From assembly GCA_964350885.1 (NCBI GenBank), contig CAYGKV010000001.1:4073-68072 (forward strand): a DNA stretch of 64,000 nt. The letters run 5' to 3'. Below are positions 48,455 to 63,433 of this stretch, in pieces. The position numbers and the translations under genes are program-made. The notes under the pieces are model-generated. The model made no database searches. It had not been told where the DNA came from and saw nothing but the letters and a program-made list of their open reading frames with translations. Source of the stretch: an uncultured Candidatus Saccharibacteria bacterium (GTDB taxonomy: Bacteria; Patescibacteriota; Minisyncoccia; Phycocordibacterales; UBA2100). Within the stretch, counting starts at the first letter, position 1. Each line of letters starts with the position of its first letter.

Positions 48455-49732
48455 TTAATCTCCAGACACTATTAGAAATGGTCCCGAACCTGATCTCGAG
48501 ATAACAATACCATTCTTATCTTTTTGCGTGATGCTAATGCGATACGAAGCTGAAACGGGCACGTTTGAGGGAATTTTTATCTGAATCGAGGGTGTGTTCG
48601 GCTGAAAACTTGTGATGCCATACTCGGTCGAATCATCGTCGGCTTTTATGGAAGCAGAGATCGTACTTACTACCCCTGTGTTGAGATTTGATTCAAGATA
48701 TACATTGAGTGTATCTCCGATAAATGCTGCTTGGGAGCCGCCAACCAATCTCATGAGTTCATATCCTGGTATCTGGCTTTCGGTGTATCCGCGAACGCTA
48801 AGCCGCGAAATAAAAATTGATGGATTTTTGGCATAGTCACATGCGCCATCATACAATTTCACAGCTTTTGCTGACGAGAAGTAACATGAATTGGGGTATG
48901 TCTTTGGAGAGTTTCCACTTCCATCATATCCGCATATCGGCGCACTATCGGTTGGGCAACTCGTAACAGCCGGATCGTTGCCTGGGACGACAATACGAAA
49001 GCCGCGAGTTTCGGCGGAAGCAACGGTTGTTGGTCTCGGGCCTTGGCAAAATCCAAGACATGCGTCTGAAGGCGTATAAACGACCGCCTTAATTGCGAGT
49101 GGACGATTAAAACTCTCTGTCGAACAAAAGCTTAATCCATCAGAGAAACCGGAACAGAGCATTTTTTCTGGTTCGGGGATTTTCCAAGTGTATGAGCCAA
49201 GGTTGGGATTAAGTTGTCCTTTGATTACGATCCCATTGCTTGCCATAAGATACATTGTCGCGTTCTGCGGAATGCCTTGCGCGTTCCACCGTATCGTCAT
49301 CGAGTCGCCGATGCGAAACGTCTCGTCACCGGAAGGATAGTTGAACGATATGGATGCAGCGCCCGGTAGTGCGACTGAGGGCTTTGTGCCGCAGCGCGTC
49401 GCGATTGCGGCACGTGTTTTGGGGCCAATGACACCGTAGCCTGTCGAAACAGCGTTGCCGTATGAGACAATCGAATTTTGCGCCTGCCATTTTTGCACGG
49501 CTGCTTCTGTCATTGGTCCAAAGAATCCAGTTGCCAGGTCGTTTCCCAAGGATTCCTGCGCAATCAGGAATTTCTGAAGGGAGATTACGTCGTTGCCTCG
49601 ACTGCCGCGCGCAAGTGTACGATAGAGATTTGGACAAGAATCCGTCGTTGTTATTGCACTTGCAAGCATAGGAACAAGCAAATTGGAAACCAAAAGAGCA
49701 GCAAGGAGATTTTGCTTTTTCATGTTGTACAT
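48455..49732 (-). CDS. secreted protein with peptidoglycan-binding (PG_binding_1) domain and Cys-containing Kazal-like segment
   Basis: signal peptide MYNMKKQNLLAALLVSNLLVPMLASA; RGSRGNDVISLQKFLIAQESLGNDLATGFFGPMTEAAVQKWQ = PG-binding repeat; CPTDSAPICGYDGSGNSPKTYPNSC resembles Kazal core PxCGxDGxTYxNxC. Confidence 0.6.
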   Translation of the reverse strand: MYNMKKQNLLAALLVSNLLVPMLASAITTTDSCPNLYRTLARGSRGNDVISLQKFLIAQESLGNDLATGFFGPMTEAAVQKWQAQNSIVSYGNAVSTGYGVIGPKTRAAIATRCGTKPSVALPGAASISFNYPSGDETFRIGDSMTIRWNAQGIPQNATMYLMASNGIVIKGQLNPNLGSYTWKIPEPEKMLCSGFSDGLSFCSTESFNRPLAIKAVVYTPSDACLGFCQGPRPTTVASAETRGFRIVVPGNDPAVTSCPTDSAPICGYDGSGNSPKTYPNSCYFSSAKAVKLYDGACDYAKNPSIFISRLSVRGYTESQIPGYELMRLVGGSQAAFIGDTLNVYLESNLNTGVVSTISASIKADDDSTEYGITSFQPNTPSIQIKIPSNVPVSASYRISITQKDKNGIVISRSGSGPFLIVSGD

Positions 49733-49776
49733 TGTCTCATTTGCAACCCCCGTTTTCAACGTCACTACGCTTATTT

Positions 49777-49799
49777 GGTGGATCAGCGGGGGATCGGTC
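49777..49799 (-). other. relic copy of tRNA-Ala 3' end (acceptor/T-arm, ~19/23 identical)
   Basis: ggtggatcagcgggggatcggtc vs tRNA 3' segment tgtggaccagcgggggatcgaac. Confidence 0.4.
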
Positions 49800-49912
49800 A
49801 CGCATAATTCTTTCGCCGTCGCACAAGAATTTCCGCTACCCCGACTCGGCCTCCCCACTGTTGACTCACAAAAAATATTCGCTCGACGCTTCACGTCGAT
49901 CGCATTATTTTG

Positions 49913-49984
49913 TGGACCAGCGGGGGATCGAACCCCGGACCTCCTCATTGCAAATGAGGCATTCTACCACTGAACTACTGGCCC
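49913..49984 (-). tRNA. tRNA-Ala (anticodon UGC)
   Basis: GGGCCAGTAGTTCAGTGGTAGAATGCCTCATTTGCAATGAGGAGGTCCGGGGTTCGATCCCCCGCTGGTCCA: cloverleaf folds, anticodon loop UUUGCAA, G3:U70 Ala identity pair, discriminator A, no encoded CCA. Confidence 0.88.
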
Positions 49985-59498: not shown

Positions 59499-60518
59499 AT
59501 GCTCTCATTTTCACCAAAATTAGTCTCAAAAGAGCTTATTGCGGGGCTTCCAGAACGCTCTCGCAGTGTGCTCAATGATCGATTCGGTCTCTTAAAAGGC
59601 AAGCGTCGCACACTCGATGCGATAGGTCAGGAATACAATATTACCCGTGAGCGCGTACGTCAGATCGAGAATCACAGCATCTCTACGGTGCGTGATTCGG
59701 ATGCATACAAAACGCTTACGGAGAGTTGGGAACATTTAAAAGCAGTTATTGCTACTCTCGGTGGAGTTCTCTCTGAGCAAACAATTTTACAGGAGCTCGC
59801 AAAAAACGAGGCGGATCGGAGTCACATACTGTTTCTGCTTACCGTCGGACATCATTTTACTGACCGACGCGAAGACAACGACTTTGCAGCTCGTTGGCAT
59901 GTGGACGAGCAGCTTGCGGAGCAGGTGGAAGCTGCACTCGCTAGTCTCTATGAGGCAATCGATGACGACAAGCTTATTCCAGAAGAAGAATTTTTAGAAT
60001 CTTTTGCAAAACACCTCAAACAGGCAGGGGTAAAAAATAGGCCTCCCGAAGTTATTTCGCGTTGGCTTTTGATATCAAAACGGATTGGACGCAATCCTCT
60101 CGGCGAGTGGGGTAAACAGGATTCGCCGCACGTACGAATCAAGAACACGCGAGATTTTGCGTACCTGACGCTCAAGCGCCACGGTTCCCCGATGCATTTT
60201 ATTGAGGTCGCCAAAAACATCGAGAAGCTTTTTAGTCGCAAGACACATCCCGCGACGACGCACAACGAACTCATCAAGGATAATCGGTTTGTGTTGGTTG
60301 GTCGCGGACTCTACGCACTCAAGGAGTGGGGATATCAATCAGGCGTTGTCCGCGACGTTATTGTCAGCATTTTAGAGCGCGAAGGACCGCTTACGCGAGA
60401 CGAGATCATCGAGCGAGTGAAGCGGGAGCGATATGTGAAAGACGCGACCATTGCCGTCAATTTGCAAAATAGCATGTTCGTCAAGAATTCTGACGGTAAA
60501 TACGGGCTTGCGAAATAG
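59499..60518 (+). CDS. sigma-70 region 4-like HTH / HARE-HTH fusion protein
   Basis: N-terminus: ERSRSVLNDRFGL…TLDAIGQEYNITRERVRQIENHSI (sigma r4 HTH). C-terminus: HFIEVAKNIEKLF…FVLVGRGLYALKEW (HARE-HTH/RpoE-delta-like). Confidence 0.5.
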   Translation: MLSFSPKLVSKELIAGLPERSRSVLNDRFGLLKGKRRTLDAIGQEYNITRERVRQIENHSISTVRDSDAYKTLTESWEHLKAVIATLGGVLSEQTILQELAKNEADRSHILFLLTVGHHFTDRREDNDFAARWHVDEQLAEQVEAALASLYEAIDDDKLIPEEEFLESFAKHLKQAGVKNRPPEVISRWLLISKRIGRNPLGEWGKQDSPHVRIKNTRDFAYLTLKRHGSPMHFIEVAKNIEKLFSRKTHPATTHNELIKDNRFVLVGRGLYALKEWGYQSGVVRDVIVSILEREGPLTRDEIIERVKRERYVKDATIAVNLQNSMFVKNSDGKYGLAK

Positions 60519-60630
60519 TACTTCCAGCGATTTGCTTTAAAATTTACAAATATCTCTCGTGGGTTCTTTTTTTCTATCCCGCAGTTCTGAATAAAATAGG
60601 CGAAATTAGGGCTCGAGGTATAATCAGAAA

Positions 60631-60852
60631 ATGGAAAAATGGCCGGTCTTCAAGCCAGAATCGGATATTGACAAGGGGTTACCCGCCAACCTTCCCACGC
60701 TTCAAGAAATCATCGAAAATTCGCATTTGAGCAAGACTGATTTTGATGAATCAAGATATCGAGAATATATACAATCTTTTCAGGAAAGAGTGCGGCTGTT
60801 GCGGGAGCAAGAAACACACCGCCGGAGGTTTTTGCGTTCATCGCAACGATAA
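60631..60852 (+). CDS. small hypothetical protein (73 aa)
   Basis: ORF only; charged, no TM. Confidence 0.25.
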   Translation: MEKWPVFKPESDIDKGLPANLPTLQEIIENSHLSKTDFDESRYREYIQSFQERVRLLREQETHRRRFLRSSQR

Positions 60853-60955
60853 TGTTTACAATCGCTAGGCGATGCAAGAAAGACAACTGGATGGCACCTT
60901 TTTTATGTCAAGATGTTGATAGTGGAGTAACCATGTAGTAAGAAGATGTTACAAT

Positions 60956-62374
60956 TTGTCGGTGATTCATGAGTTTGAACAAAAAGGAATCGTCACCTCA
61001 GAGGGTTTTCGTTTGGCAATATCGTCCCTGCTCAGTTTTGATTTGCACGGTGTTGTCGACGGTTATCTCGGGAGTTACTGGGGCATTTCTCGGTGCCTTA
61101 CACTGAGCATCTTTTTTTTCGGTTTACTGATGATTTTGTCGACACAAATACCAAACCTCTTCATTTTTGCGTCGGGATGGCTCTTTGGTACGGCACCGGT
61201 CTGGATTCCTGTGATTACTCTTATGTCTGCGTGGTATGTGTGGTTGTGGTACGTGCGAAGTGCATATATCGCGAAGCAAGTACCCATTCTTCTCGAAGTG
61301 AAGATGCCTCGAGAGATCAATCGATCCCCGCGCGCAATGGAAAATGCACTCTCCAAGCTGTGGACGGATTCTGGCGAGACGACATTTTACAATCGATCAT
61401 GGCAAGGCCAATGCCGTCCCTACTTTTCACTTGAGATGGCGTCTTTTGGCGGTGAAGTTCACTTTTATATTTGGTGTTGGAAAAATTGGCGGCCGACGGT
61501 CGAATCTATGATGTACGCATACTATCCAGAGGTTGAACTCGTAGAGACAGAAGATTATGCGTCGAAATTTAAATATGATCCTGAGAAGTACGATTCCTTT
61601 CCTACCGATTGGCGTTACGAACCGCGCAACGATGCCTATCCCATTCGAACGTATGTCGAATTTGAACTCGATAAGGATCCGAAAGACGAGTACCGAGTAG
61701 ATCCTCTTGCACAGGTTTTGGAGAGATTGAGCACACTAAAGCCGAGCGAACAAATGTGGGTCCAGATTATCATCACGATGAGTCGGGATACGCGTCGAGT
61801 AAAAGACGGCGCGTGGTGGCAAACGGAACCTCGATTCGAGTCGTTGATAAAAGAAGAGGTTGAGAAACTCCGTAAGGAAACATCCTCCCAATCAGACTCT
61901 CCCGATGAACGATGGAAAGCGTACGCTCGTGTTCCTCTATTCCGGTATACGGAATTGGTCAAAGCCATGGATCGCAATATGGGTAAACACCCGTTCAACG
62001 TCGGCATGCGCGGCATTTATGTTGCAGAATCCAAAGACTTCAATGCGCCGAGCTATACAGGGTTGCGATGGATATGGAGACCCTTCGGCAATCCCCAGTA
62101 CATGAATCAAATGCGCCCGCGCCGATGGGGGAATCCATTCGATTGGCCGTGGCAAGATTACAAAGACGTGCGATGGAATCTCATGATCAGGCGCGCGCTT
62201 GATGCATATCGCAGACGCTCGCATTTTTATTCGCCTTGGATCTTTCCGCACAACATGATGTCGACCGAAGTGATAGCAACTATGTGGCATCCACCGAGCG
62301 CCTCTGTCGCAGCTCCTGGTCTTGAGCGCATCGCAGCCAAGAAAGCAGAGCCACCACCAAATTTACCTAAATAG
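60956..62374 (+). CDS. membrane-anchored hypothetical protein with Trp/Tyr/Arg-rich extracytoplasmic domain
   Basis: two N-terminal TM helices (LSIFFFGLLMIL…, VWIPVITLMSAWYVWLWYV) then ~380 aa soluble domain with many W (WRPFGNPQY, WGNPFDWPWQDY); GTG start, contains in-frame T8 run at 61112-61119. Confidence 0.45.
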   Translation: MSVIHEFEQKGIVTSEGFRLAISSLLSFDLHGVVDGYLGSYWGISRCLTLSIFFFGLLMILSTQIPNLFIFASGWLFGTAPVWIPVITLMSAWYVWLWYVRSAYIAKQVPILLEVKMPREINRSPRAMENALSKLWTDSGETTFYNRSWQGQCRPYFSLEMASFGGEVHFYIWCWKNWRPTVESMMYAYYPEVELVETEDYASKFKYDPEKYDSFPTDWRYEPRNDAYPIRTYVEFELDKDPKDEYRVDPLAQVLERLSTLKPSEQMWVQIIITMSRDTRRVKDGAWWQTEPRFESLIKEEVEKLRKETSSQSDSPDERWKAYARVPLFRYTELVKAMDRNMGKHPFNVGMRGIYVAESKDFNAPSYTGLRWIWRPFGNPQYMNQMRPRRWGNPFDWPWQDYKDVRWNLMIRRALDAYRRRSHFYSPWIFPHNMMSTEVIATMWHPPSASVAAPGLERIAAKKAEPPPNLPK

Positions 62375-62398: not shown

Positions 62399-63433
62399 AT
62401 GGAACCTTTCTTTAGGCGTCTGCAAAAATTACTGGACACAGGACATTTCTTAATTCACAACCTCGAAGAGCGTTCTCAGGAAGGCGTAAATCGCCGCACC
62501 ATCATCATCATTTGTGTCGCAGGATTTTTGTCGGCAATTGCATATTTGTTTGTAATCCGACCCCCCCACAATTTTCCCATCGACACACTCGTCTCTGTGA
62601 AAGATGGATCATCACTCGAGAGTGTTGCGCGAGATATGCAAACAAGCGGTGTCGTTCGCTCCGGCGCGCTCTTGCGGGCACTCGTGTGGGCAATGGGAAA
62701 TTCGCGATCCGTGCGCGCCGGAGATTATCTTTTTAAAAAACCGGAGGACATTTTCTCGGTTGCGCGCACTCTCGCATTGGGTCGCTATGGGCTCGAACCC
62801 TTTAGAATTCGAATTCACGAAGGAGCGATGACGAAAGAAATGGTCGATTTATTTGATAAACGACTCGAACGGTTTGATGGGGATCGTTTTCTCCGCGAAG
62901 CGCAGTCGCATGAAGGGTACCTCTTTCCCGACACATACTTTTTCATGCCAAACGCGACAGATGAGACGGTAATTCAGACACTGCGGCAAAATTTTGACCA
63001 ACAGATTGCCACTATTTCTTCAGAACTCGCGAGTTCTACACGCACTCTTTCCGAAATCGTCACTATGGCTTCAATCGTCGAGCGCGAAGCGCGCGACCCA
63101 AAAGACAGGCGCATGATTGCGGGAGTCTTGTGGAACCGCCTTGCACGCGACATGCCGCTCCAGGTGGATGTCACGTTTCTCTACACCATCGGCAAAGGCA
63201 CGTTTGATCTCACTATGACGGATCTCGTCAGCGACTCTCCGTACAACACATACAAAAACAAAGGACTTCCGCCGACACCAATAGGGAGCCCATCTTTGGA
63301 CTCCATTCTCGCTGCGGCACAGCCGACAAAGAACAACTATCTGTACTACCTCGCGGACAATACGGGCGTGACGCACTTTAGCAAAACCTACGCAGAGCAT
63401 CTCCGCAAAAAACGCCTGTATTTGGGCACGTGA
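62399..63433 (+). CDS. mltG: endolytic murein transglycosylase MltG (YceG family)
   Basis: N-terminal TM helix, YceG core (VTIHEGAMTKE, GYLFPDTYFF, LPPTPIGSPS). Confidence 0.8.
   Translation: MEPFFRRLQKLLDTGHFLIHNLEERSQEGVNRRTIIIICVAGFLSAIAYLFVIRPPHNFPIDTLVSVKDGSSLESVARDMQTSGVVRSGALLRALVWAMGNSRSVRAGDYLFKKPEDIFSVARTLALGRYGLEPFRIRIHEGAMTKEMVDLFDKRLERFDGDRFLREAQSHEGYLFPDTYFFMPNATDETVIQTLRQNFDQQIATISSELASSTRTLSEIVTMASIVEREARDPKDRRMIAGVLWNRLARDMPLQVDVTFLYTIGKGTFDLTMTDLVSDSPYNTYKNKGLPPTPIGSPSLDSILAAAQPTKNNYLYYLADNTGVTHFSKTYAEHLRKKRLYLGT

Follow-up and report, generated by a model that had tools for sequence, protein, structure and literature searches.

A membrane-anchored, ATPase-less protein related to DUF8128 and resembling the VirB4 N-terminal domain, encoded beside mltG in Paceibacteria

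In the inner-membrane complex of type IV secretion systems (T4SSs), VirB3 is wrapped about VirB4's N-terminal domain, and the tails of VirB8 bind the outer VirB4 subunits (PMC9259494). TrsD, a free-standing protein with a remote relationship to VirB4's N-terminal part, is abundant in Patescibacteria (PMC12102498); the same 2025 survey lists 5,713 VirD4-like genes for this group, most of which lie at a distance from virB4 and may have been exapted (PMC12102498). Here we analyze a protein (herein X) encoded upstream of mltG in a stretch of 64,000 nucleotides (nt; herein the window) from an uncultured Candidatus Saccharibacteria bacterium (assembly GCA_964350885.1, contig CAYGKV010000001.1, positions 4,073 to 68,072, forward strand). 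X is a new, ATPase-less variant of a DUF8128/VirB4-N-terminal-domain-like module and is deeply conserved beside mltG. Its closest database proteins come from Candidatus Kaiserbacteria and Parcubacteria, which marks the window as patescibacterial. Residues are numbered below on the 472-aa form of the protein, and the features of the gene pair, in window positions, are as follows:

60962 to 62374, + strand: gene X, membrane-anchored, ATPase-less, DUF8128/VirB4-N-terminal-domain-like (470 aa from GTG 60962; 472 aa from TTG 60956)
61091 to 61255, + strand: transmembrane (TM) hairpin, residues ~46 to 64 and ~68/80 to 100, with a short uncharged outside loop (hydropathy, AlphaFold2, charge)
61268 to 62326, + strand: predicted cytoplasmic α/β domain, residues ~105 to 457, DUF8128 homolog (alignments, hhalign, profile and structure searches)
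62312 to 62371, + strand: disordered C-terminal peptide (A)PGLERIxAKKAEPPxNLPx-COOH, a putative docking motif (alignment, model confidence)
62399 to 63433, + strand: mltG, YceG-family endolytic transglycosylase, 344 aa (Pfam, NCBIfam)

Pfam, NCBIfam and PHROGs returned noise only when X and ten of its distant relatives were scanned; a sequence-profile search of the Protein Data Bank (PDB) returned no match, tblastn against plasmid and phage collections returned chance matches only, and we found no literature on DUF8128. Some X homologs carry precomputed matches to PF26449 (DUF8128) that are rated faint or weak. A pattern scan of viral contigs picked out a partial open reading frame (ORF; locus L095) in which an X-type C-terminal motif, SEELATIYHFP...KRAPAPAQIP, runs into a Walker A ATPase (RHMYIIGKTGTGKS). 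Searching with this fragment returned proteins that carry PF26449, PF10412 (TrwB_AAD_bind) and PF01935 (DUF87), some of them named "HerA-like ATPase," and the loci encoding them hold DUF8128, DUF87/TrwB_AAD_bind and TraG-D_C pieces in series. Fragments at two loci, L096 and L097, which carry PF26449, DUF87/TrwB_AAD_bind and TraG-D_C, are matched colinearly by a hidden Markov model of the X family. Against an intact 778-aa ATPase (L112, 7134 to 9470; database name [quoted passage not shown]), the X profile gives an hhalign probability of 99.9% and E of 6e-33 over 307 columns, residues 105 through 472 of X aligning with residues 44 through 350 of the ATPase. The latter continues past residue 350 into TrwB_AAD_bind/DUF87 (residues 365 through 464) and TraG-D_C (residues 628 through 706). 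The original prediction had been unable to match X to any known family; this alignment supplies one for its soluble part, the DUF8128 region.

The relationship stops where the motor begins. In tblastn searches, the N-terminal half of the fused protein matched X in 95 of 95 sequences (94 Paceibacteria loci and the window), while its ATPase half had no match anywhere in the same 1.28 Mb. X lacks both a Walker A motif and any ATPase domain recognized by Pfam, and it ends at the point where its fused homologs enter the P-loop domain, as seen at the junctions in L095 and L112. X keeps the peptide at this junction better conserved than the fused forms do; in X it is predicted to be disordered, with a predicted local distance difference test score (pLDDT) below 50 for residues 458 through 472. 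Because profile homology is joined by the lack of both a Walker A motif and a nearby ATPase half, we regard X as a stand-alone module: on the sequence evidence, it is an ATPase-less homolog of the DUF8128 module that precedes the P-loop in patescibacterial VirD4/TraG/HerA-type ATPases, and it either lost its motor domain or never had one.

In both protein types, a TM anchor at the N terminus leads into the same ~300-aa domain; they also share a series of motifs (LLEIxxPR, FSxEIxxxxxxIxFY, YPxxEIxEVxxY, DPL, SEELATIFHFP and the proline-rich junction peptide) and a chromosomal, core-gene setting in housekeeping contexts. They differ in that X has no P-loop, TrwB_AAD_bind or TraG-D_C domain, usually has two TM helices, and bears a Trp-rich xPRRWxNPFDYPWQD motif; moreover, X adjoins mltG, whereas the fused genes are flanked by ribonucleotide reductase/PduO on one side and XerC/FtsB on the other and have no mltG near. 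Set against the features of a type IV coupling protein (T4CP), X is predicted to have the N-terminal TM anchor with a cytoplasmic soluble part but lacks the P-loop (Walker A/B; TrwB_AAD_bind, T4SS-DNA_transf, TraG-D_C).

L112 and 44 similar metagenome loci (L099 to L177) encode fused ATPases of ~780 aa that are very conserved, at 75 to 85% identity over the query fragment. Their context is fixed and of the housekeeping kind: ribonucleotide reductase, a PduO-type adenosyltransferase and a 115-aa ORF that overlaps the start, followed by a XerC-like recombinase and FtsB/DivIC; none lies inside a T4SS cluster. Database entries for them are often fragments of 85 to 258 aa, even on long contigs (L096 and L097 included), and look like frameshifted gene calls in error-prone assemblies, so that the full-length architecture has been hidden from word-based searches. 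In the "viral" contig L095 (IMGVR_UViG_3300009537_000513), a fragment of an ATPase from the candidate phyla radiation (CPR), its ORF stopping after 171 aa, is joined to phage-like structural genes of high GC content; the contig is probably an assembly chimera.

At its N terminus, X has a hydrophobic hairpin at residues ~46 through 100 by hydropathy, modeled by AlphaFold2 as helices at 46 through 64, 68 through 78 and 80 through 107; both approaches support the two-TM anchor proposed for X from its sequence. The loop between the TM helices holds a mean of 0.33 lysine and arginine (K/R) residues, versus ~4.2 where the chain leaves the membrane ahead of the domain. With TM helices in even number, a K/R cluster after TM2 and a short uncharged loop, the arrangement obeys the positive-inside rule. 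In the fused homologs, no TM helix separates the DUF8128-type domain from the P-loop, and because the homologous domain is joined in this way to a cytoplasmic P-loop ATPase, the ~350-aa domain of X can be strongly inferred to face the cytoplasm as well. The earlier view of a ~380-aa extracytoplasmic domain is contradicted on both counts, by the fused ATPase homology and by the K/R distribution.

The AlphaFold2 model of X, built with 41 homologs, has a pLDDT of 77.6 and a predicted template modeling score of 0.74. In a Foldseek search with this model, the top eight matches are all chains of TrwK, the VirB4 of plasmid R388 (probability 0.97 to 1.0), and EccE proteins are also matched (EccE3, 6lar_G; EccE5, 7b9f_E). 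Structures of ATPases alone (the VirB4 C-terminal domain, TrwB, FtsK) are not among the matches listed. Because of this, and because of the EccE matches, we assign the TrwK match to the N-terminal domain of VirB4, whose fold the X domain would therefore share as judged from the model. That domain is likewise cytoplasmic and membrane proximal, and VirB3 has two TM helices, so X resembles a VirB3-like hairpin joined to a VirB4-N-terminal-domain-like domain. Unlike VirB4, X has no C-terminal ATPase; it is 6% identical to TrwK, homology cannot be detected from the sequences, and the PDB sequence search gave no match. No CagE_TrbE_VirB or AAA_10 match was found in X with Pfam, hhalign of the X profile against the VirB4 of pGO1 (TrsE) was negative, and no T4SS genes (VirB3, VirB6, VirB8 and others) were seen near X, the neighbors being housekeeping genes in the 80 distant loci described below and in the window.

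EccE of the ESX (type VII) secretion systems offers a second likeness, with two N-terminal TM helices and a cytoplasmic α/β domain without an ATPase. X is larger, however, and has a conserved C-terminal peptide; it shows neither sequence similarity to EccE nor a Pfam EccE match, belongs to a different phylum, and has no ESX genes (EccB, EccC, EccD, MycP) nearby in the 80 loci or the window. A third is TrsD/TraD of pGO1/pSK41-type Gram-positive conjugation, also a stand-alone VirB4-N-terminal-like protein without an ATPase. TrsD is ~227 aa long and usually lies next to virB4, whereas X is ~470 aa long and lies next to mltG; in a single-sequence test of low power, hhalign found no similarity between the X profile and pGO1 TrsD (probability 0.3%).

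The X family is large. A HMMER scan of 1.84 billion cluster representatives (50% identity clusters) gave 1,334 matches at E<=1e-3, of which 982 reach E<=1e-10; lengths among the best 150 run from 190 to 500 aa, and nearly all of their alignments reach query residue 471 or 472. Scanning species-representative genomes with a seven-sequence X alignment found at least 586 X-related stretches, and neighborhood counts were made on the best 80 of these, in which X is 29 to 39% identical to the window protein. These 80 are all of the X type; some among the other 506 may be of the fused ATPase type. All but one belong to Patescibacteria (Paceibacteria, Taylor-, Zambryski- and Kaiserbacteria). The exception, labeled Thermodesulfobacteriota, is a 10.8-kb contig (L040, JBBDIN010000155.1) that shows the usual Paceibacteria arrangement of a HARE-HTH gene and X; its label is probably a binning error. 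The X ORF is intact and full length in relatives, in 80 or more loci, and no paralog occurs in the 94 loci or the window. Against an 86%-identical ortholog, the ratio of nonsynonymous to synonymous substitution rates (dN/dS) is 0.11, which, with more than 1,300 clusters at E<=1e-3, marks X as a real gene. Thirteen positions are invariant in 45 diverse X sequences: E114, E160, D200-Y201, D249-P250, Q270, R352, R421, E438 and, at the C terminus, P467, L470 and P471. The Trp-rich character noted at the outset holds (5.1% Trp, with the WRPFGNPQY...DVRW and EVELVETEDY segments present), and a motif specific to X, PRRWxNPFDYPWQD, occupies residues ~372 through 407.

On its 3' side, X is followed directly by mltG, as had been proposed; the enzyme is identified above curated thresholds by Pfam YceG (PF02618, 256 bits against a cut-off of 32.4, E 4.9e-76) and TIGR00247 (205 bits against 103.4, E 1.1e-60). 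On its 5' side lies the following gene:

59499 to 60518, + strand: protein of 339 aa with Sigma70 region 4 and HARE-HTH domains (Pfam Sigma70_r4 E 9.8e-13, HARE-HTH E 9.5e-10)

Among the 80 distant loci, the sigma-r4/HARE-HTH gene immediately precedes X in 75 and mltG immediately follows it in 78, so that the order sigma-r4/HARE-HTH, X, mltG is found in ~75. Other neighbors are less constant: leucyl-tRNA synthetase (LeuRS) in 65, an ATP-cone/Mrr protein in 46, YchF in 40 and alanyl-tRNA synthetase (AlaRS) in 30, with DnaB and RecR adjoining the trio in Kaiserbacteria only. X and mltG sit inside a larger housekeeping block (LeuRS, MnmA or RNase T, ATP-cone/Mrr, uracil-DNA glycosylase, AlaRS). 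Conservation of the X-mltG neighborhood, put forward as a check on the original prediction, is borne out: the trio is kept in ~75 of 80 deeply diverged loci while other neighbors vary.

Among these neighbors, the ~340-aa protein present in 75 of 80 loci (for example L015, 6870 to 7940) has an uncommon architecture, with sigma region 4 at its N terminus joined to a HARE-HTH domain like that of RNA polymerase delta. Upstream of the trio in L027 (3945 to 6800), LeuRS carries a NUDIX domain (aa 393 through 508) inserted after its editing domain. Of the 80 distant loci, 46 keep, a few genes 3' of mltG, a protein with an ATP-cone and an Mrr_cat domain (restriction-endonuclease fold) as well as a PD-(D/E)XK nuclease, as do several relatives among the Kaiserbacteria (e.g., L001, 10010 to 10912; L016, 11221 to 12090).

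Two further elements lie near the start of X:

60947 to 60955, + strand: extended -10 element TGtTACAAT of the likely X-mltG operon, 6 nt before GTG 60962 (sequence)
61112 to 61119, + strand: run of eight T (T8) coding for FFF in TM1 (sequence, relatives)

Many first genes in the window share one layout, a TGnTAnnnT element (often an extended -10), ~6 nt and then the start codon; examples lie upstream of 9589, 14033, 36029, 46259, 50145, 55711 (- strand), 55753, 59265 (- strand) and 60962. Shine-Dalgarno spacing was not seen before genes heading transcription units in the window. A -10 box only ~6 nt from the start codon indicates leaderless transcripts, and these seem to be the rule here. The ORF given for X from the outset (60956 to 62374, 472 aa) is real, but its TTG start is doubtful because that codon abuts the -10 box (60950 to 60955), too close for inclusion in the transcript. 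The true start is most likely GTG 60962, giving a 470-aa protein from a leaderless mRNA; it matches the start of a database protein (P0001, 470 aa). Kaiserbacteria relatives have an equivalent TGnTAnnnT element 5 to 8 nt before the start of X, and a looser TAnnnT match precedes 72 of 95 X genes in a count made without a control. The mltG gene starts 24 nt past the X stop codon, and no promoter-like -10 element was seen in this gap in the window. Taking the shortest possible gap in each genome, X and mltG are separated by a median of 3 nt and by <=50 nt in 78 of 84 genomes. Genes that nearly abut across so many genomes are likely to be cotranscribed, and X and mltG are therefore likely to be expressed together from the extended -10 promoter of X, the Sigma70_r4/HARE-HTH gene being a separate transcription unit.

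The T8 run is present and in frame, as first described, and had been put forward as a potential slippage site. It is kept in the window, in three other assemblies from the same population (L012 to L014) and in an 86% relative (L007), with the same length and in frame throughout; it is T6 in a 78% relative (L010) and T4 in two 71 to 77% relatives (L008 and L001) through synonymous changes. We find no evidence in these sequences of phase variation at the run, and the slippage proposal is not supported. Within the 5' part of X, at positions 61089 to 61119, the T8 run comes just after a hairpin of 7 bp, an arrangement that resembles an intrinsic terminator. An attenuator reading of this element was rejected: three such matches occur versus 2.4 expected from shuffled sequences, and the run is not conserved.

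How might such a protein work? Reasoning by analogy from the N-terminal domain of VirB4 and from EccE, we think it probable, with some reserve, that X is a hairpin-anchored, cytoplasm-facing, ATPase-less DUF8128/VirB4-N-terminal-domain-like docking platform cotranscribed with mltG. Lying on the cytoplasmic face of the membrane, X would bind partners through its VirB4-N-terminal-domain-like region and through the invariant, disordered PPxNLP peptide; the analogy suggests membrane partners and possibly a soluble one, the latter held by the C-terminal peptide. Candidates are the bitopic MltG, through its short cytoplasmic tail or its TM segment, further proteins of the envelope, or an ATPase provided in trans. 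MltG would be the most obvious of them. Such binding would couple a cytoplasmic component to the cutting of peptidoglycan strands. The homology, the fold, the lack of an ATPase, the conservation and the gene order are shown by the analysis; these partners, and the biological role itself, are inferred.

Several points weigh against the platform reading. The DUF8128 label for X rests on the faint or weak precomputed matches, and the Pfam copy scanned, which evidently lacks this model, gave no DUF8128 match either in X or in the fused protein whose fragments carry PF26449. The structural match to TrwK has a global TM-score of ~0.33 at the 6% identity given above, and its placement on the N-terminal domain is indirect, the aligned TrwK residues not being visible. 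A conserved cytoplasmic tail of MltG was sought as a ligand of X, but across Paceibacteria outside Kaiserbacteria the tails are variable, so a model in which X binds the tail sequence specifically is unsupported. Finally, given the housekeeping surroundings, the adjacency of X and mltG may in part be a matter of overall synteny and not of a common function, and their link could be organizational rather than physical.

The alternative that survives best, although we consider it unlikely, is a split T4CP-like translocase to which X contributes the membrane and N-terminal half, the ATPase half being encoded elsewhere and docking on the PPxNLP peptide. Together the two would carry DNA or protein through the membrane, and MltG would open the wall locally, as VirB1 does in type IV secretion. 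The exact stop of X at the P-loop junction and the stronger conservation of the junction peptide in X than in fused forms fit this idea, as do the orphan VirD4-like genes that Patescibacteria carry far from virB4, possibly exapted (PMC12102498), and the regular occurrence of lytic transglycosylases as T4SS accessories (PMC12102498). However, no gene for an ATPase half lies within +/-8 kb of X in the 94 loci or anywhere in the 64-kb window, and split genes mostly stay adjacent. MltG, moreover, is a universal housekeeping enzyme, and the neighborhood is of the housekeeping kind, not that of a T4SS.

Far less probable, and largely refuted, is an extracytoplasmic domain that binds the cell wall or senses the envelope on behalf of MltG, the role first suggested for X. 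The aromatic-rich composition and the adjacency of mltG speak for it. The even TM number, the K/R residues after TM2 and the short uncharged loop speak against it, as do the homology to a domain that, without any TM helix in the linker, is fused to a P-loop ATPase of the cytoplasm and a fold like the cytoplasmic domains of VirB4 and EccE; Pfam found no peptidoglycan-binding domain in X, and with the domain predicted to be cytoplasmic neither the wall-binding nor the sensor role holds up. That X is a functionless, decaying remnant of a T4CP-like ATPase gene would account for the loss of the catalytic domain that defines its relatives, but is scarcely credible for a protein that is full length and intact in all 80 or more loci, keeps its invariant residues among sequences 26 to 40% identical, has a dN/dS of 0.11, and has retained its position, promoter and family motifs (FDYPWQD).

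Upstream of X, the window differs from its relatives by an insertion:

60580 to 60940, + or - strand not assigned: lineage-specific intergenic insertion of ~360 bp (DNA alignment versus four relatives)
60619 to 60624, + strand: perfect TATAAT hexamer, 6 nt 5' of the ATG of the 73-aa ORF (sequence reading)
60631 to 60852, + strand: charged 73-aa orphan ORF of uncertain coding status (ORF list)

In all relatives examined, including one whose X is 86% identical, only 60 to 117 bp separate X from the HARE-HTH gene, and the window has ~360 bp extra. The insertion is single copy, and blastn finds it only in the 100%-identical contigs L012 to L014; it has no Rfam match and no repeats of note, and promoter and terminator scans of it were at chance level. 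The 73-aa ORF within it is a real reading frame, as listed at the outset, and is charged (14 K/R, 13 D/E). It had been treated as one block with X, a pairing that fails because the insertion is missing from all relatives outside the assemblies with identical X; the ORF is a strain-specific orphan outside the X-mltG unit. It is possible, if rather doubtful, that it is a genuine young, small leaderless gene, perhaps a regulator or toxin-like factor brought by the insertion. Its perfect TATAAT, 6 nt and ATG repeat the layout of real genes in this genome, it occupies most of the insertion, and its sequence is identical in four assemblies. On the other side, it has no homolog among 5.8 billion proteins, its Pfam and PHROG matches are noise only, and it is missing from the 86%-identical relative. 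It is not recorded as a called gene, the gene tables of three assemblies with identical X showing nothing between the HARE-HTH gene and X. Its codon score (0.076 per codon) is borderline, between the 5th percentile of real genes (0.081) and the 95th percentile of off-frame sequence (0.052), and is no better than that of two other frames. Of the original picture of an envelope-linked, membrane-anchored protein upstream of mltG, then, the anchor and the link to mltG stand, and the two-gene block, the slippage site and the outside topology do not. Elsewhere in the window, positions 48455 to 49948 (- strand) encode a 497-aa envelope protein with PG_binding_1 and Kre9/KNH-like Ig-like domains that is unrelated to X.

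By itself the finding settles no long-standing question, and X is not a new kind of system. Patescibacteria (CPR) make up a large share of bacterial diversity, and the majority of their conserved genes lack an assigned role; here, a conserved "hypothetical" protein of Paceibacteria gains an origin, a topology and a firm genomic partner, mltG, across deep divergence. The comparison also connects DUF8128, the VirB4 N-terminal domain and EccE as membrane-platform modules of different secretion systems, which bears on the evolution of such machines and on exaptation. A more far-reaching scenario, which we hold to be decidedly speculative and improbable as it stands, is that a module of a type-IV-secretion-type ATPase lost its motor and joined the housekeeping cell-wall machinery of Paceibacteria, where X, as a receptor on the cytoplasmic side, would position or gate MltG, or else would dock an ATPase in trans at an opening in the wall made by MltG. 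If true, either version would be a previously unrecognized kind of link between parts of secretion systems and the termination of peptidoglycan strands, and the version with an ATPase in trans would amount to a minimal envelope-crossing device in ultra-small bacteria.

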